Of a stretch of 64,000 bases of DNA, positions 6,317 to 22,390 are shown piece after piece (position 1 is the first letter of the stretch; each line of letters begins with the position of its first letter). The notes beneath the pieces are model-generated. The model saw only the letters and a list, made by a program, of their open reading frames with translations. It was not told where the DNA came from and searched no databases. This DNA is from Escherichia coli. Lineage in GTDB: Bacteria > Pseudomonadota > Gammaproteobacteria > Enterobacterales > Enterobacteriaceae. A program made the position numbers and the translations under genes. Location: assembly GCA_025336725.1 (NCBI GenBank), contig GCA_025336725.1_3647.1; one strand, 5' to 3'.

Positions 6317-7683
6317 ACGTCCCCCTTTTCTGCTCTAGTTTCAAAATCTTTCCTGACTTTCTCGTCTAAGCCAGGGAAAGTTGTATTATAAAACTCTACG
6401 ACTCTCGGGTCAACAATAATATCCACCTCTCTTAATGGACGCAATAAGTTTATTCCTTGTATCGTCTTAACCCGACTCAAGGCAACATACGTCATTCCGG
6501 GAGAGAAAGCTCCGTTCTTTCCGAGGTCTAGGTTGTAACAATCTAACGTAAGTCCTTGACTTTTATGCGATGTTACTGCGTACCCAGATTTCAAAGGAAG
6601 TTGCTCATAAGACCCGATCACAACCCTCTCTATGAACTTCTCCATCTTCCTTTCGGCAATATTGTACCTCTGGGAAGGTTTGTACTCGTTATTCTCCCAC
6701 AATCTCGGCTCAATTTCAACCTGTGTTCCGTCTTCTAGCTCAACTACTACGGATTTGGTCTTGAATTTTACCACTGTGGCACGTGTCCCGTTAACATAAT
6801 ACGGAACTTTGTGAGTAGGGTCAACATCGTTTGAGGTTATCATAACCTTCATCCCTATCTTCAGCCTCATTTCCTGCTCCACAGGTAGTGTGGAAGGGAA
6901 CTTACCTTTCATTTTACCAATGTAGGTCTTCTCTGGGGCCTTGATGGCATCATAGAAACGTCTGTTCACCTCCTCTGCTTGCTTATTGGTGGCACAGATG
7001 GTCAAGGCATCTGTTGGGACACCACCATGATAGCAACGAGTGTTAAGCTCTGCTACAACCTCTTTTATGCGACGACCTTCACGAACACAGTTCAACATTG
7101 TGGCGAAGCGAACAGATTCCTGACGGAACTGGTCTACCAAGGCTATGTTGTGAAGATTAAGATCCTCCCAAGATTCTGTATAGCAACACAGATCTGTGTG
7201 GTAGAAGTTGAAGTAGGCTTCTTTCTCCATAGAAGAGACAACTGGAGGTGCTTGGTAGAAATCTCCAAACAATAACACCTGAATGCCTCCGAAAGGTTTG
7301 TCATTTTTCCGAAGAAAGCGGAGTTTTCTATCCATCTCTATGAACTTGTCAGCACGGATCATAGAGATTTCATCGATAATCAGGATGGTAAATGCCTTGC
7401 TTTTCAGAGGCTTTGCTGTTTTTGCCCTTATTGCTGTCCAGTCTGACTCCATGCTCACACCTGCGGCAAGATCGAAAGTTCGGTGCGCTGTTGCTCCATT
7501 AACGTTTAAAGCGGCTACCCCTGTCGGGGCAACCGTTATGCAAGAGTCTCCATACATGGACTGGATCATGTTGATAAGATATGTCTTCCCGGTTCCACCA
7601 GGTCCACTTACGAAGACATTCTCACCGCTCATGATTGCAACAAGGGCAGCATCTGTGCCTACATCGTACTGCCCTTTTTCCAT
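6313..7683 (-). CDS. SF1B DNA helicase (PIF1/RecD/Dda-like)
   Basis: 456 aa; Walker A VSGPGGTGKTYL, Walker B IIDEISM, motif LLFGDFYQAPPV typical of PIF1/Dda-like helicases. Confidence 0.8.
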   Translation of the reverse strand: MEKGQYDVGTDAALVAIMSGENVFVSGPGGTGKTYLINMIQSMYGDSCITVAPTGVAALNVNGATAHRTFDLAAGVSMESDWTAIRAKTAKPLKSKAFTILIIDEISMIRADKFIEMDRKLRFLRKNDKPFGGIQVLLFGDFYQAPPVVSSMEKEAYFNFYHTDLCCYTESWEDLNLHNIALVDQFRQESVRFATMLNCVREGRRIKEVVAELNTRCYHGGVPTDALTICATNKQAEEVNRRFYDAIKAPEKTYIGKMKGKFPSTLPVEQEMRLKIGMKVMITSNDVDPTHKVPYYVNGTRATVVKFKTKSVVVELEDGTQVEIEPRLWENNEYKPSQRYNIAERKMEKFIERVVIGSYEQLPLKSGYAVTSHKSQGLTLDCYNLDLGKNGAFSPGMTYVALSRVKTIQGINLLRPLREVDIIVDPRVVEFYNTTFPGLDEKVRKDFETRAEKGDV

Positions 7684-11391: not shown

Positions 11392-11417
11392 AGAAAATCC
11401 CCGCCGAAGCGGGGGTG
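11392..11417 (-). terminator. rho-independent terminator
   Basis: Minus strand CCCCCGC-TTCG-GCGGGG hairpin followed by TTTTCTATT, just downstream of stop of ORF 11427..11807. Confidence 0.6.
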
Positions 11418-11816: not shown

Positions 11817-13001
11817 TCAAGCTTTAGCCAAAATGGCGCTAAACTCTTCACCAAACTCTTTTACAATCTTCATCAGGTTTGGGTACGCTTTGATCAGTTG
11901 AGCAACGATCTTGTCACGACCTTTACCGATAAGCAAGGCATTTCCTAAGGCATTAGGTTTCATCATCGCCATAAAGACTGAGAATACAAAGTCTCGGTTC
12001 TCATCCTTGAAATTTTCCCAAAGGAAATCAAGGAAGTTTGCCACACAGCTGACGAGATCTTCGTCGGAGATACTTGCATTTTCCATCATGTTACGAATAG
12101 CGATACAACCTTCAGACCCCAGAATCCACAAGATGTCTGGCTGCTTAGGGCCTACATATTCTTTGCAGCCTCCTGCCATAATCCGACCGATTTCTGGCAA
12201 GTTTCGTTTCTTGGTGTGGTAGGTCCAAATTTCTACCGCTGCAGTGTGACCAATGGCACCTTGTAGAAGAACACGGGCCATAGCGTCAGAAATAATACCG
12301 CTGTCAAAATCGTGCAGGATGTCAGATGCAGCAACCCAAGAGCGCGGTGTAGCAAAAGATGGACAATTAATCTCAGCCATGGCCTCATAATTATCGATGG
12401 CTGATGGGACTCTTTTCAGATATCCAATTACCGAGGAGTGCACCCCATTAAGGAATGCATAGTCCTCAATAAACACCTCTGCACTGCTTGTAACTTCTAC
12501 AATGATAAAGCGGTTAGCTAGAGGAGCTTCGAGTGCCGAAAGAACAGCACCGTCTGTAGCACGGTTACCTGCAGCTACAAAAACAGAGCCTTTAGGAAAT
12601 GCATAGGTGCCGCACTTGTGGTCGAGCATAATTTGCATTGCAACCTTCTGCAGGTAGTTATCTGCATGAGTAAGCTCGTCTAGAAAGATAATTCCGCTCC
12701 AGTCCGGATCTGCAGGCCAAAATTCTGGAATTGCAAACACTGTACGTGTAGTTCCATCTGCCTCCACAGGGATAGGCAGTCCAGATAAGTCAGCAGGATC
12801 TTTATCTGACAACCGCACGTCAACCAGGTTGTCATCTCGCTCACCGAACATATTATCAGCAATCTGCTTCATCACCTGGCTCTTCCCCACGCCCATCGGT
12901 CCTAAAATCAGGACAGATCGGTTATGACGCTGGGCAAATTGAATAATAGCTGGCAACTCGCGGACAGTGATTTGACCACTTTCGAATACGTTTCTCGACA
13001 T
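11817..13001 (-). CDS. MoxR-like AAA+ ATPase (AAA_5 type)
   Basis: 394 aa; Walker A GPMGVGKS, Walker B IIFLDEL, sensor-like VAAGN. Confidence 0.7.
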   Translation of the reverse strand: MSRNVFESGQITVRELPAIIQFAQRHNRSVLILGPMGVGKSQVMKQIADNMFGERDDNLVDVRLSDKDPADLSGLPIPVEADGTTRTVFAIPEFWPADPDWSGIIFLDELTHADNYLQKVAMQIMLDHKCGTYAFPKGSVFVAAGNRATDGAVLSALEAPLANRFIIVEVTSSAEVFIEDYAFLNGVHSSVIGYLKRVPSAIDNYEAMAEINCPSFATPRSWVAASDILHDFDSGIISDAMARVLLQGAIGHTAAVEIWTYHTKKRNLPEIGRIMAGGCKEYVGPKQPDILWILGSEGCIAIRNMMENASISDEDLVSCVANFLDFLWENFKDENRDFVFSVFMAMMKPNALGNALLIGKGRDKIVAQLIKAYPNLMKIVKEFGEEFSAILAKA

Positions 13002-14323: not shown

Positions 14324-14602
14324 TTAGGCAACTGTCATTTTACATTCTTGAAATTTTAGCACAAGACGGTGATTGTGTCTAGTGTCTAAAAAGATTTTTT
14401 CAACCATCAGGCACACGGTGTAACCGTCCATCTTGTTGACAACAAAATCCCCAGGGTGAGGGAGAATGTCCCCAGGATTGGGGAAACATAACCCGCTCAA
14501 GAAGGCATCATCGGTGGTGGACCTGATGGATTTCCACACACTATCTGCCTGGACACTCTCACCAACATAATATACACTACCACATGCCTTCATCATAGTC
14601 AA
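14324..14602 (-). CDS. hypothetical protein
   Basis: 92 aa ORF; 4-nt overlap with upstream gene. Confidence 0.45.
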   Translation of the reverse strand: MTMMKACGSVYYVGESVQADSVWKSIRSTTDDAFLSGLCFPNPGDILPHPGDFVVNKMDGYTVCLMVEKIFLDTRHNHRLVLKFQECKMTVA

Positions 14603-15498
14603 ATCTCCGCGTAAATTAAACTGGAATCAGTATACTTCTTTAGTGGGTAAATATCCTGTCCATAGATGCCGTCATTAAACACCTCATCTACCCAAAGGCT
14701 ACACTTATATCCCATCATCTCTAAAACACCCATCTCTTCTTCGGTAAACTTATCACCGCTCTTGCAAGATGTCAACACCTCATTCTGTACTCTTGCTACC
14801 TCGAAGCGATTATTGGCAATATCGCTATTAGCGATCAAATACTCACCCAAAGGGTGTGCGGCATTAAAGATGCACAGTGGACGGTTGACGTAATAGTCTC
14901 CAGGTGTATAAAAATTATTGAGGTCTTTCACTAGAACATTCTTATCAGTCACTTCATTTATAACATCATGCATATCGCACATCTTTATATGTTTGAGGAT
15001 TCCATCCCCCATCACAAAATAAAAACTTGCTGAAACACTTTCGGCATAGATCTTACTAGATCCGTTGTAGTTGTATTTTACTCGGATGCTAACGGAGGTT
15101 TTTCCTGTCGCGTTAGCCATCATCCAAAGGAACGGAAGTTCAAACTTCTCCTCTGAGGAAACAAAAGGTGAAGTTGCCAGAGATCGGAAACCACCAGAGA
15201 AGTTGAAAGTTACAGAGCCGCTCCGGCGATATGATACCGCATATTCTACTTTTATATCGACATAGCCGTTGGAGTAAGTGTGGCCTCCATTATCCAGATA
15301 TGTCCACTTATCAGATCCGGATACCAGCCTACGCTCAATAACCTTCATTACTATAGGAATTAGCGGGTTGGTACAAACCGATTTTGAAGTAGCTTTATCA
15401 TCCAAAGCCTCGTAAATTGCAGAAAGGATATCACCTGCTGAGAGATTGGTTGTGATATCTTGTTTCCACCGAGTGCTAAAGCTGTTAAGATTTGCCAT
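14599..15498 (-). CDS. hypothetical protein, first gene of leftward early operon
   Basis: Start set to ATG 15498 (AGGAG RBS; MANLNSF..), because ORF-track GTG at 15540 lies upstream of the predicted -10 element. Confidence 0.5.
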   Translation of the reverse strand: MANLNSFSTRWKQDITTNLSAGDILSAIYEALDDKATSKSVCTNPLIPIVMKVIERRLVSGSDKWTYLDNGGHTYSNGYVDIKVEYAVSYRRSGSVTFNFSGGFRSLATSPFVSSEEKFELPFLWMMANATGKTSVSIRVKYNYNGSSKIYAESVSASFYFVMGDGILKHIKMCDMHDVINEVTDKNVLVKDLNNFYTPGDYYVNRPLCIFNAAHPLGEYLIANSDIANNRFEVARVQNEVLTSCKSGDKFTEEEMGVLEMMGYKCSLWVDEVFNDGIYGQDIYPLKKYTDSSLIYAEI

Positions 15499-15538
15499 GA
15501 TTAAGTGCTCCTGTGTTCGTTTTCTTTCGAATGGGTGC

Positions 15539-15567
15539 ACTATATCGTAGATTTATAGTAAAGTCAA
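15539..15567 (-). promoter_or_regulatory. sigma70-like promoter, leftward
   Basis: Minus strand TTGACT (15567-15562), 17-nt spacer, TATAGT (15544-15539). Confidence 0.55.
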
Positions 15568-15580
15568 TACGTTTTTGAGG

Positions 15581-15609
15581 TTGACATCTGTCGAGGCACT
15601 TGATAAGAT
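15581..15609 (+). promoter_or_regulatory. sigma70-like promoter, rightward
   Basis: TTGACA (15581-15586), 17-nt spacer, TAAGAT (15604-15609); back to back with the leftward promoter. Confidence 0.55.
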
Positions 15610-15640
15610 TTCTTCACCTACAAAGCACAAGAGACAACTC

Positions 15641-16630
15641 ATGAATCTTGAAAAATATTATACACCAGAAGAGTTAGAGCGCCTGCTCAAAAAATATAGA
15701 CGTAAACAGAATAATGCACGGAAACGAGATATAGAGTTCAACCTGTCATGGGAAGAATATCTCCTATTTGGTAAAAAACTTTTAGGAGAGGGAGTATGCG
15801 ACTATACCCTTATACCTTTCGACATGCACACAGATGAAAACGGACTGGGAAATCCTTTCTACCCATCTCTAGAGCGGATAGATGATGAAGGTCCTTATGC
15901 GGTTGATAACTGTTGTGTGGTAGGATTGAGATGCAACTCTCTAAAGGACTGTCTGGTAGATAAAAAGACCGCAGTCTTGATTAAAGACAAAACTGATCGA
16001 AAAATTGTCCAGCAGATGATGCTCCACCTGAGCGAAGAGCGTATGGAGAAATTGAAAGGTGATTACACTTTTGAAGATTTCATCTTGCAATATGGAACGG
16101 AAGAGGATAAACTAGCACTCTTTGACGAAGAATGGGAGGAAGATATGTCACCAATGCAGGATTTTAAAAACTTCATGGCTAATCGTGGAGCCAACAAGCA
16201 CATTTCTGACATTGTAAACGAGCCTGCAGTAGAGGAGATTGAAGAGATGACGCAACAGGCTTACGAAGAGGAAAAAGAGCCTCAAGGGGTCGAAGAAGAG
16301 CTTACAGAAGAGGTTCCTGCACTGCCTGACGATGTTGAGATTGCCAAAGCTTACACTTTCTATTGCCAGACGTTCTACGATGCAGGTATGAAAGTTGATC
16401 TGTCATTCAGCCAGTTTAAGAGCACATACATTCGAAAATGTTGTGCTTTAACTGGTGAACGTCTCGGTGCCGGACTTAAACCCCTATTAGTTACCGACTG
16501 GAACAAAGGTTTCACCAAAGGTAACTTCATGGTAGTATCTCCAATCATGGAGAAGGCTATGACAGACCTTATGAAGACCACTCGCATGACAATGACCGAG
16601 TTGGCTGGTATTTTCAAGCACGTTAAATAA
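15641..16630 (+). CDS. hypothetical acidic protein with two degenerate HNH-like halves
   Basis: Start moved to ATG 15641, downstream of promoter; central E/D-rich linker; ..SLERIDDEGPYAVDNCCVVGLRCNSLKD.. and ..CCALTGERLG..LVTDWNKGFTKGNFMVV.. Confidence 0.45.
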   Translation: MNLEKYYTPEELERLLKKYRRKQNNARKRDIEFNLSWEEYLLFGKKLLGEGVCDYTLIPFDMHTDENGLGNPFYPSLERIDDEGPYAVDNCCVVGLRCNSLKDCLVDKKTAVLIKDKTDRKIVQQMMLHLSEERMEKLKGDYTFEDFILQYGTEEDKLALFDEEWEEDMSPMQDFKNFMANRGANKHISDIVNEPAVEEIEEMTQQAYEEEKEPQGVEEELTEEVPALPDDVEIAKAYTFYCQTFYDAGMKVDLSFSQFKSTYIRKCCALTGERLGAGLKPLLVTDWNKGFTKGNFMVVSPIMEKAMTDLMKTTRMTMTELAGIFKHVK

Positions 16631-16642
16631 TGACAGGGGCCA

Positions 16643-18124
16643 ATGGCCCCTTCTGGAGTTTTAATGGATAGCAGAAGTTCAGAAATCATTACCGCACAAA
16701 AAGATGATGCCTTGCGAATGCTGCAGGCCGCTCGCATGTACCTTCTTGAAAAGCTGCCGTTTTATGGCACACTGTTGTCAGGGTTGCAGTTCGTAGAAAA
16801 CCACACATGGTGCTCCACTATGGCAACAGACCATAAACGCATCTACTACAGCCCTGAGTTCATTATGGGGTTGGCAGATGAGCGTAAAACCATTCTTAAA
16901 GCATCTCTGACTGACAAGCAGTTTGAGATGGCTGAGGTTTTCTATTCCCCAAAATCTGTGAAAGAGGTGGCCTTCCTTCTGTCACATGAGGTGGGGCATA
17001 TTATCTGTGATCATCTGGTCCGTGGTAAAAGCTTTGAGCCGGAACTGTTCAATATTGCTTGTGATCACGTTATCAACACAGGTCTTGTGGTTGACTTTAG
17101 CAAGCCTCCTTGTGTTTTCTTCCCGAAGGGGAAAAGCACTGAGTTCGTAAAAGGTAAGCCTTTTGGCTTCTTAGCTAATTGCTACTGCGACATGAAGTTT
17201 CATGGATGGATTGCTGAGAACGTCTATGCAGTTCTTGATAAACAAAGAGATCAGAATAGCGGTAAAAGTAAGAACGGTAAAGGCGAGAACTTCCAAGGAG
17301 ATAAACGACAAACCGATGATCACATGAGCGGGAACGGTGGCACCAGTGATGATCTTGGAAAGGCTATGGGGTATGATCAGCCGCAACCAGTAATCAGTCA
17401 ATCTGATAAAGATCAGGCCATGCAGGACTCTGGTGACATGTTGGAAGCAGCAATGCAAGCTTCAGGAGGTCGTTGCCCTGAGGCGGTGCGCGAGTTTGTC
17501 AAAAACAGAGGCAAGCCTGTAATCAACTATATAGATATTATTAAGCAACGTATGTTGTCTAAACGAAAGGCCGAGCTAACCTACAGAAAACCTGGTCGCC
17601 GATCTGGGTCTTTGACCACCACAATGCGAAAAGTTGGAGCTATAAACAAGAATCAACACATTATTGTTCCTGGTCGTAATCCGGAAAACACCATAGATAT
17701 TGTAGTGGCTTTGGACGTTTCTGGGTCGATCTCGCAAAGAACTTTAAAGAAAATGTTCAATGAGATCACCGGGTTGTGCAATTTGTATAAAGAGTTTAAG
17801 GTTACGATGTTCTGTTGGTCAACCGAGGTTGGAGAGGTTAAAGTATACACTCGCGGTAACATCGATGAGATGATTAACTATGAGGTCCACTCAACATGGG
17901 GCACAACAGCCGCCTGCGTGTTCGAGTATCTGGATGCTAACATACCGAATGCAAAAGATGTCATCGTCCTTACCGACCTCTACTTTGAGCACAACTTTGA
18001 ACAAAAGGCTGTTGACAACAAGTGGAAAAAGTACGATACTTTATGGGTTCTCACCGAAGGGTATAATAAAAATTATATCCCGAGCTTTGGGAAAACTGTG
18101 GAATTAATCGAGTATGCTAAGTAA
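16643..18124 (+). CDS. putative metallopeptidase / von Willebrand factor A domain protein
   Basis: 493 aa; HExxH motif (LLSHEVGHIICDH) in N-terminal half; VWA MIDAS-like DxSGS (IVVALDVSGSIS) in C-terminal half. Confidence 0.6.
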   Translation: MAPSGVLMDSRSSEIITAQKDDALRMLQAARMYLLEKLPFYGTLLSGLQFVENHTWCSTMATDHKRIYYSPEFIMGLADERKTILKASLTDKQFEMAEVFYSPKSVKEVAFLLSHEVGHIICDHLVRGKSFEPELFNIACDHVINTGLVVDFSKPPCVFFPKGKSTEFVKGKPFGFLANCYCDMKFHGWIAENVYAVLDKQRDQNSGKSKNGKGENFQGDKRQTDDHMSGNGGTSDDLGKAMGYDQPQPVISQSDKDQAMQDSGDMLEAAMQASGGRCPEAVREFVKNRGKPVINYIDIIKQRMLSKRKAELTYRKPGRRSGSLTTTMRKVGAINKNQHIIVPGRNPENTIDIVVALDVSGSISQRTLKKMFNEITGLCNLYKEFKVTMFCWSTEVGEVKVYTRGNIDEMINYEVHSTWGTTAACVFEYLDANIPNAKDVIVLTDLYFEHNFEQKAVDNKWKKYDTLWVLTEGYNKNYIPSFGKTVELIEYAK

Positions 18125-22355: not shown

Positions 22356-22363
22356 CTATAAAA

Positions 22364-22390
22364 GAAAGGGGGCATTTCTCCCTTTTTTAT
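22364..22390. terminator. bidirectional terminator at convergence of plus and minus operons
   Basis: GGGGG-CATTT-CTCCC hairpin with T-rich flank on the plus strand (TTTTTTAT) and on the minus strand (TTTCTTTT). Confidence 0.5.

Follow-up and report, generated by a model that had tools for sequence, protein, structure and literature searches.

In phage lambda, about 82 bp separate the start sites of PR and PRM, two back-to-back divergent sigma70 promoters. Symmetric bidirectional promoters, which Warman and colleagues are said to have described in 2021, reportedly share a single -10 region between the two directions and have starts about 18 bp apart. Closest to the locus considered here are promoters P010 and P011 of phage rV5, predicted by Kropinski et al. 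(2013, Virol J 10:76, Table S4), of which P010 lies at 6636..6681 on the minus strand (TTGACT...TATAGT) and P011 at 6685..6713 on the plus strand (TTGACA...TGATACGAT). The rV5 RefSeq record carries only P11 of the two, and the record of phage Gotham (MT682716) has both promoters at homologous sites, 13 bp apart, as predicted by PhagePromoter; the published rV5 pair and the Gotham annotation are both predictions. For any vequintavirus, we found no transcript mapping (start sites, RNA-seq) or reporter data in the searchable literature, and in the one RNA-seq paper that mentions vequintaviruses the phage sequenced was T5-like. A further described system is the sigma70-like early promoter consensus of Certrevirus, AAAA(N3-4)TGTTGAC(N17-19)TATAAT (Buttimer et al. 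2020, PMC7344957).

The DNA analysed here, a stretch of 64,000 nucleotides that we refer to in full as the window, belongs to an rV5-like E. coli phage of the genus Vequintavirus, and the 2.2 kb around its promoter pair share 93-97% identity with over 100 Vequintavirus genomes (rV5, FV3, ECP26, BASEL phages and others). Both promoters, the leftward P_L and the rightward P_R, sit in the 142-bp gap that separates the orthologues of rV5 gp10 and gp11, which in rV5 or FV3 numbering is at about 6.6-6.7 kb, between gene 10 (-) and gene 11 (+). Judged by this position and by its alignable sequence, the pair is the orthologue of rV5 P010/P011. The P_L hexamers (TTGACT/TATAGT), the P_R -35 hexamer and TG, the 17-bp spacers and the 13-bp gap are the same in both phages, whereas the P_R -10 hexamer reads TACGAT in rV5 and TAAGAT in the window, and the spacers differ by two substitutions in P_L and four in P_R. 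The feature is an ordinary one and had already been published, of which the earlier note on this DNA was unaware.

Like lambda PR/PRM, the locus has opposed, non-overlapping cores that serve divergent units, with predicted starts about 84 bp apart, but neither operator repeats nor an adjacent repressor gene were found, and regulation by a repressor is unsupported. Like the symmetric bidirectional promoters, it would be transcribed both ways from one short region; its -10 and -35 elements are, however, separate, with the two -10 hexamers 59 bp apart and the predicted starts far more widely spaced, and it is not a promoter with a shared -10. In the Certrevirus consensus, as in the window, an A-tract precedes a strong -35 TTGAC: P_L, with the sequence CAAAAACGTATTGACT, fits AAAA-N-(T)GTTGAC bar one base, whereas P_R has no upstream A-tract on its own strand. 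As in the window, the Certrevirus promoters are concentrated among small, presumed early genes; the back-to-back arrangement is not described in that paper (PMC7344957).

Promoter elements and flanking genes

Each promoter agrees with the sigma70 consensus at 10 of 12 positions. The -35 hexamer is identical to TTGACA in P_R (6/6) and one base removed from it in P_L (5/6), and the -10 hexamer matches TATAAT at five of six positions in P_L and at four of six in P_R, with A2 and T6 present in both. With spacers of 17 bp in either case, P_L and P_R both have the -35, the -10 and the spacing (17 +/- 1 bp) of sigma70 promoters. P_R is of the extended -10 class, with a TG one base upstream of its -10 hexamer (-15/-14), and this 4/6 hexamer depends on the TG. 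The earlier note was silent on this TG; its reading of TTGACT-17-TATAGT leftward and TTGACA-17-TAAGAT rightward, with 13 bp between them, proved correct to the base when checked against the sequence and by a consensus scan (Table 1).

Table 1. Coordinates in the window of the promoter pair, the flanking genes and the terminators.
Feature	Position	Strand	Remarks
P_L (leftward, rV5 P010 orthologue) -35, TTGACT	15562..15567	-	sequence reading and consensus scan
P_L -10, TATAGT	15539..15544	-	sequence reading and consensus scan
P_R (rightward, rV5 P011 orthologue) -35, TTGACA	15581..15586	+	sequence reading and consensus scan
P_R extended -10, TGaTAAGAT	15601..15609	+	TG 15601-15602, hexamer 15604-15609
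T5/A5 tract	15572..15576	.	exact centre of the 13-bp gap between the -35 hexamers
gp10 orthologue, first leftward gene	14599..15498	-	299 aa, PHROG 12338, function unknown
gp10 Shine-Dalgarno sequence, AGGAG	15512-15508	-	9 nt upstream of ATG 15498
gp11 orthologue, first rightward gene	15641..16630	+	329 aa; N-terminal domain Srd-like/HNH-fold (PHROG 3118, 1400, 4592)
MoxR-like AAA ATPase gene	11817-13001	-	
DUF2201 metallopeptidase/VWA gene	16643-18124	+	
Intrinsic terminator, CCCCGCTTCGGCGGGG and T-rich tail	11399..11414	-	orthologue of rV5 t003; the leftward unit (gp10 to gp3) likely ends here
Intrinsic terminator, 11-bp stem and T6	22362..22388	+	closes the rightward block where the coding strand switches

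The two cores (P_L 15539-15567, P_R 15581-15609) point away from each other without overlap, each facing a gene, and thus form a back-to-back divergent pair. Between the -35 hexamers lie 13 bp (15568-15580, TACGTTTTTGAGG), the only DNA that the two promoters would share, and the T5/A5 tract within them falls at -44..-40 of both P_L and P_R. This is the position of the proximal UP-element subsite, at which the alpha-CTD binds, so the tract could serve as a shared, UP-type alpha-CTD contact. Initiation by sigma70 holoenzyme takes place at a purine 6-9 nt past the -10 hexamer; an A stands exactly 7 nt past each -10 hexamer, at 15532 (-) and 15616 (+), and from this spacing we predict start sites there, 84 bp apart, with leaders of 34 nt leftward and 25 nt rightward. 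Because the cores do not overlap and the predicted starts are this far apart, both promoters could in principle be occupied at once.

The start codons that the earlier note proposed for the two flanking genes, at 15498 and 15641, are borne out. The leftward ATG follows a Shine-Dalgarno sequence (Table 1), and in 10 of the 15 relatives the extension to the GTG at 15540 is interrupted by an in-frame stop; the protein begun at the rightward ATG aligns at its N-terminus with homologues from other genera, and this codon is the start in the FV3, EmilHeitz, Gotham and Murica records. The alternative rightward start, the TTG at 15575, lies upstream of the predicted rightward start site; the extension that it opens is free of stops in 15/15 genomes and changes mostly by amino-acid replacement. 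That both starts of the open reading frame track lie within promoter elements is correct for the GTG at 15540, which overlaps the P_L -10 hexamer, but not for the TTG at 15575, which is outside any hexamer, in the T5 tract between the -35 elements. Public records disagree on the start of gp11, with three codons in use: besides the ATG given here, rV5 RefSeq has a TTG 42 nt downstream of it, and navn and rV5_ev146 have an ATG 63 nt upstream.

Public names of the two proteins also vary, gp10 being called '(putative) alpha-1,3-fucosyltransferase' and gp11 'HNH endonuclease', '(Srd-like) anti-sigma factor' or 'anti-termination'. A Pfam search of gp10 and gp11 gave no match, and the names 'fucosyltransferase', 'HNH endonuclease' and 'anti-termination' are therefore unconfirmed; among PHROG families, the N-terminal domain of gp11 matches those called 'Srd anti-sigma factor' and 'decoy of host sigma70'. 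Further downstream, a GC-rich perfect palindrome (AGGGGCCAATGGCCCCT, 16635-16651) lies between the gp11 stop at 16630 and the start of gp12, which is 16643 in the list of open reading frames and an ATG near 16664 in public records; the palindrome could be an intercistronic hairpin or an attenuator, and the scan scored it as resembling a terminator on the minus strand alone. Several relatives (L002, L003 and L005) have a rightward TTGCCA-17-TAAGAT with a TG (9/12) within the 5' end of gp10, where the window, at 15403-15431, has TTTCCA (8/12); the site is probably cryptic or a chance match.

Conservation of the pair within and beyond the genus

Consensus-like sites are frequent in this phage. 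In the whole window, 36 sites agree with the consensus at 10 or more of 12 positions, compared with 16.4 +/- 3.6 in 100 dinucleotide shuffles, an excess of about twofold, and most of them are co-oriented with the local genes; a 12-kb scan returned 33 matches of at least 9/12 where 24 were expected. A lone 10/12 match is thus unremarkable and weak evidence, and conviction for the pair comes from position, orientation and conservation. The window-wide excess of sigma70-like sites agrees with the many host-type promoters reported for rV5.

We aligned 15 Vequintavirus genomes in which the promoter region is 84-98% identical to the window. Variable columns numbered 2 of 26 in the hexamers and TG, compared with 23 of 32 in the spacers and 54 of 116 in the other intergenic positions (one-sided Fisher tests, 5e-7 and 1e-4, respectively); these genomes are closely related and their columns are not phylogenetically independent, which is offset by the data from other genera. 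Both variable hexamer positions are the third base of a -10, that of P_L changing in a single genome and that of P_R being A or C, while the two -35 hexamers, the TG of P_R, A2 and T6 of both -10 hexamers and the T5 tract in the gap are invariant in 15/15. The length of the spacers is conserved and their sequence is variable, with changes at 12 of the 17 positions in P_L; the IMG/VR relative L005 likewise differs from the window at 8/17 positions of the P_L spacer and is identical to it at 12/12 positions of the P_L hexamers. This pattern indicates that purifying selection acts specifically on the promoter hexamers.

The promoter region (15480-15660) looks mosaic when compared with 14500-16700. 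Between ECP26 and the window, the gp11 protein is 100% identical and the 2.2-kb stretch 97%, and the 181-bp promoter region is only 91% identical; in C5, 206 and rV5_ev158 the identity of the 181-bp region is 98.3%. Such a mosaic of identities suggests recombination around the intergenic region. Sixteen GenBank records (MG0656xx) named 'Campylobacter phage', with C. jejuni as host, are about 95% identical to E. coli vequintaviruses, and their host labels look doubtful.

Beyond the genus, TTGACA was present upstream of the homologue of gp11 (the Srd-like gene) in every Vequintavirinae lineage fetched, and the cross-genus form of P_R is TTGACA, 16-18 bp and a (G/C/T)ATAAT-like hexamer, the ATG of the Srd-like gene following after 31-72 nt. 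P_R is adjoined by a leftward TTGAnn-16/17-TAnnnT in Seunavirus, Mydovirus, Henunavirus, TH18-like phages and several IMG/VR lineages, and the same back-to-back layout is found at the homologous divergence in Kashira, SSBI34, CR3/KaOmega and FBKp34 (Stephanstirmvirinae). Kashira has the same TCAAGTGTTGAC core at the homologous point of divergence, and five genes separate this core from the Srd-like gene; in SSBI34, CR3/KaOmega and FBKp34 the leftward arm opens with a phosphohydrolase gene. Both promoters of FBKp34 were annotated by its depositors, and its P_R contains the same TGATAAGAT as the extended -10 of P_R in the window. The leftward partner matches the consensus at only 8/12 positions in Seunavirus and Mydovirus and at about 6/12 in CR3 and KaOmega, where it may be weak or inactive because the match is so low. 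The T5-6 tract recurs in the 65%-identity IMG/VR group L006-L009. The first leftward genes of the different genera are distant homologues, and the divergent layout is therefore ancestral.

The earlier note's proposal of two back-to-back sigma70-like promoters thus stands, as the pair fits the two divergent gene blocks in placement and orientation, its hexamers are under specific purifying selection, and its layout is kept across genera. An alternative leftward register in Seunavirus, TCAACA-17-TACAGT, which overlaps the P_R -35 hexamer, was rejected because Mydovirus and Henunavirus do not conserve it. A mini-hairpin motif, AACGGG-N5-CCCA, is conserved in the 5' leader of the Srd-like gene, about 10-40 nt upstream of the ATG, among Seunavirus, Mydovirus, Henunavirus and related lineages; its stem is invariant, and the motif is absent from Vequintavirus, including the window.

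Transcription units and alternative explanations

With a probability of roughly 85%, we read the locus as two classical back-to-back promoters, orthologous to rV5 P010/P011, that would be used by unmodified host sigma70 RNA polymerase. Transcription from P_L would start near 15532 and proceed leftward through gp10 and the gene for the MoxR-like ATPase, ending at the terminator at 11414-11399; transcription from P_R would start near 15616 and proceed rightward through gp11, the gene for the DUF2201 metallopeptidase/VWA protein and then a string of small genes to the terminator at 22362-22388. At the equivalent boundary, between genes 26 and 27, rV5 carries a bidirectional terminator. Further matches of at least 10/12 occur in the leftward block (-35 starts at 14381, 13900 and 13224) and in the rightward block (18012, 19216, 19575, 21306 and 21685). 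Internal promoters at such sites would reinforce both arms, and because of these matches the pair need not drive whole operons; the earlier statement that it drives the two operons applies insofar as the pair would start each arm, but it is probably not the sole promoter of either. Since host polymerase would need no phage factor here, both units most likely become active as soon as infection begins, and the promoter type together with the gene content, small genes of unknown function lying downstream, suggests that they are early. The MoxR-like AAA ATPase and the DUF2201 metallopeptidase/VWA protein are likely partners and are encoded on opposite arms.

The modest local excess of matches of at least 9/12 (33 against 24) is what would favour regarding the pair as chance resemblances to the consensus with no function. 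The probability of this is negligible, since one match of at least 10/12 on each strand, correctly oriented, is expected within the 142-bp gap with a chance of only about 2e-4, and the hexamer-specific conservation and the cross-genus layout effectively refute it. It is somewhat less far-fetched, though still quite improbable, that P_R alone works and that P_L is fortuitous or vestigial, the leftward genes being expressed from the internal sites of at least 10/12 in their own block. The rV5 RefSeq record annotates just P11, and the weak leftward partners of Seunavirus, Mydovirus and CR3 point the same way, but in Vequintavirus the P_L hexamers are nearly invariant next to a spacer that varies at most of its positions, the TAnnnT register of the -10 is kept in every genus, no other promoter-like site was found upstream of gp10, and of the two promoters P_L is the one that MEME found in rV5. 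Slightly less probable again is that the inverted repeat GTCAA-N13-TTGAC is an operator at which a dimeric phage or host protein would shut both promoters, a true hub like lambda OR (PR/PRM). The two -35 hexamers do form an imperfect palindrome, and the first rightward gene has been annotated as an anti-sigma or Srd-like factor; the palindrome is, however, the automatic product of two opposed -35 hexamers, and a search of 15480-15660 for repeats and dyads found no other operator-like element. An 11-nt direct repeat (TGxTAAGATTT) and a 9-nt inverted repeat 87 nt apart in the same interval were judged to be chance. No further copy of the conserved leftward leader motif or of the motif formed by the gap and -35 was found in the 64-kb window, and neither gp10 nor gp11 has a Pfam DNA-binding domain. 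The earlier suggestion of a likely regulatory hub accordingly found no support, and the locus lacks the dyad operators and the adjacent gene for a DNA-binding regulator that characterize a repressor-controlled switch of the lambda OR type. T4 Srd, moreover, is reported to be a stimulator of RNase E and not a DNA binder (Qi et al. 2015, as cited for the stimulation), so negative feedback of gp11 on these promoters is speculation. An Rfam scan of 15300-15850 (E <= 1) returned no match, and folding of the two predicted leaders gave no meaningful structure: the leftward leader has a z of +0.5, and in the rightward one 5 bp pair weakly into a hairpin around the ATG (-4.4 kcal/mol, z -2.1).

The length of the gap between the -35 hexamers bears both on the operator and on a further possibility. 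The shortest gaps, of 3 bp, occur in Seunavirus, Mydovirus, TH18-like phages, Kashira, Certrevirus and FBKp34; Henunavirus and two IMG/VR lineages have 4 bp, Vequintavirus and the 65%-identity IMG/VR group have 13-14 bp (14 bp in L004 and L007), and SSBI34 has 23 bp. From one lineage to another, the spacing of the half-sites of the putative operator thus changes by 10 or 20 bp, a shift that a single dimeric binder would hardly accommodate. The classes of 3-4, 13-14 and 23 bp differ by steps of about one helical turn, a small and possibly new point that we regard as a lead and not as a result. Steps of about 10 bp would keep the rotational relation of the two promoters, and the geometry itself could then be under selection, either for the rotational relation of two RNA polymerases or for a shared alpha-CTD site, with polymerases or alpha-CTDs interacting on the A/T tract and the arms firing in a coupled manner. 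Such coupling could mean cooperation, mutual exclusion or a link through supercoiling, with the two arms co-regulated as one unit. The restriction of the gaps to these few lengths, the invariant T5 tract at the exact centre of the window's gap, and the placement of the ATPase and its likely VWA partner on opposite arms, which would reward coordinated expression, all argue for selection on the geometry. Only two independent changes of gap length are involved, however, with a rough chance of about 0.04; a difference of +/-1 bp is tolerated within a class, as L004, L007 and Henunavirus illustrate, and the steps would be explained equally well if lineages had acquired A/T-rich UP modules, each about 10 bp long. 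We consider coupled promoters a tentative idea, doubtful on present evidence although distinctly more probable than an operator or a solitary P_R, and retain two classical sigma70 promoters as the preferred reading.

Significance for rV5-like phages

The value of these results lies mainly in annotation, as they fix both start codons, together with the limits of promoters and terminators proposed for the two divergent units in this isolate, and they provide comparative support for the 2013 prediction in rV5. For the engineering of rV5-like therapeutic phages, the pair would be a sensible compact bidirectional promoter. If the spacing quantised in steps of 10 bp holds in more lineages, these phages would offer a small natural experiment on polymerases that share one upstream region.
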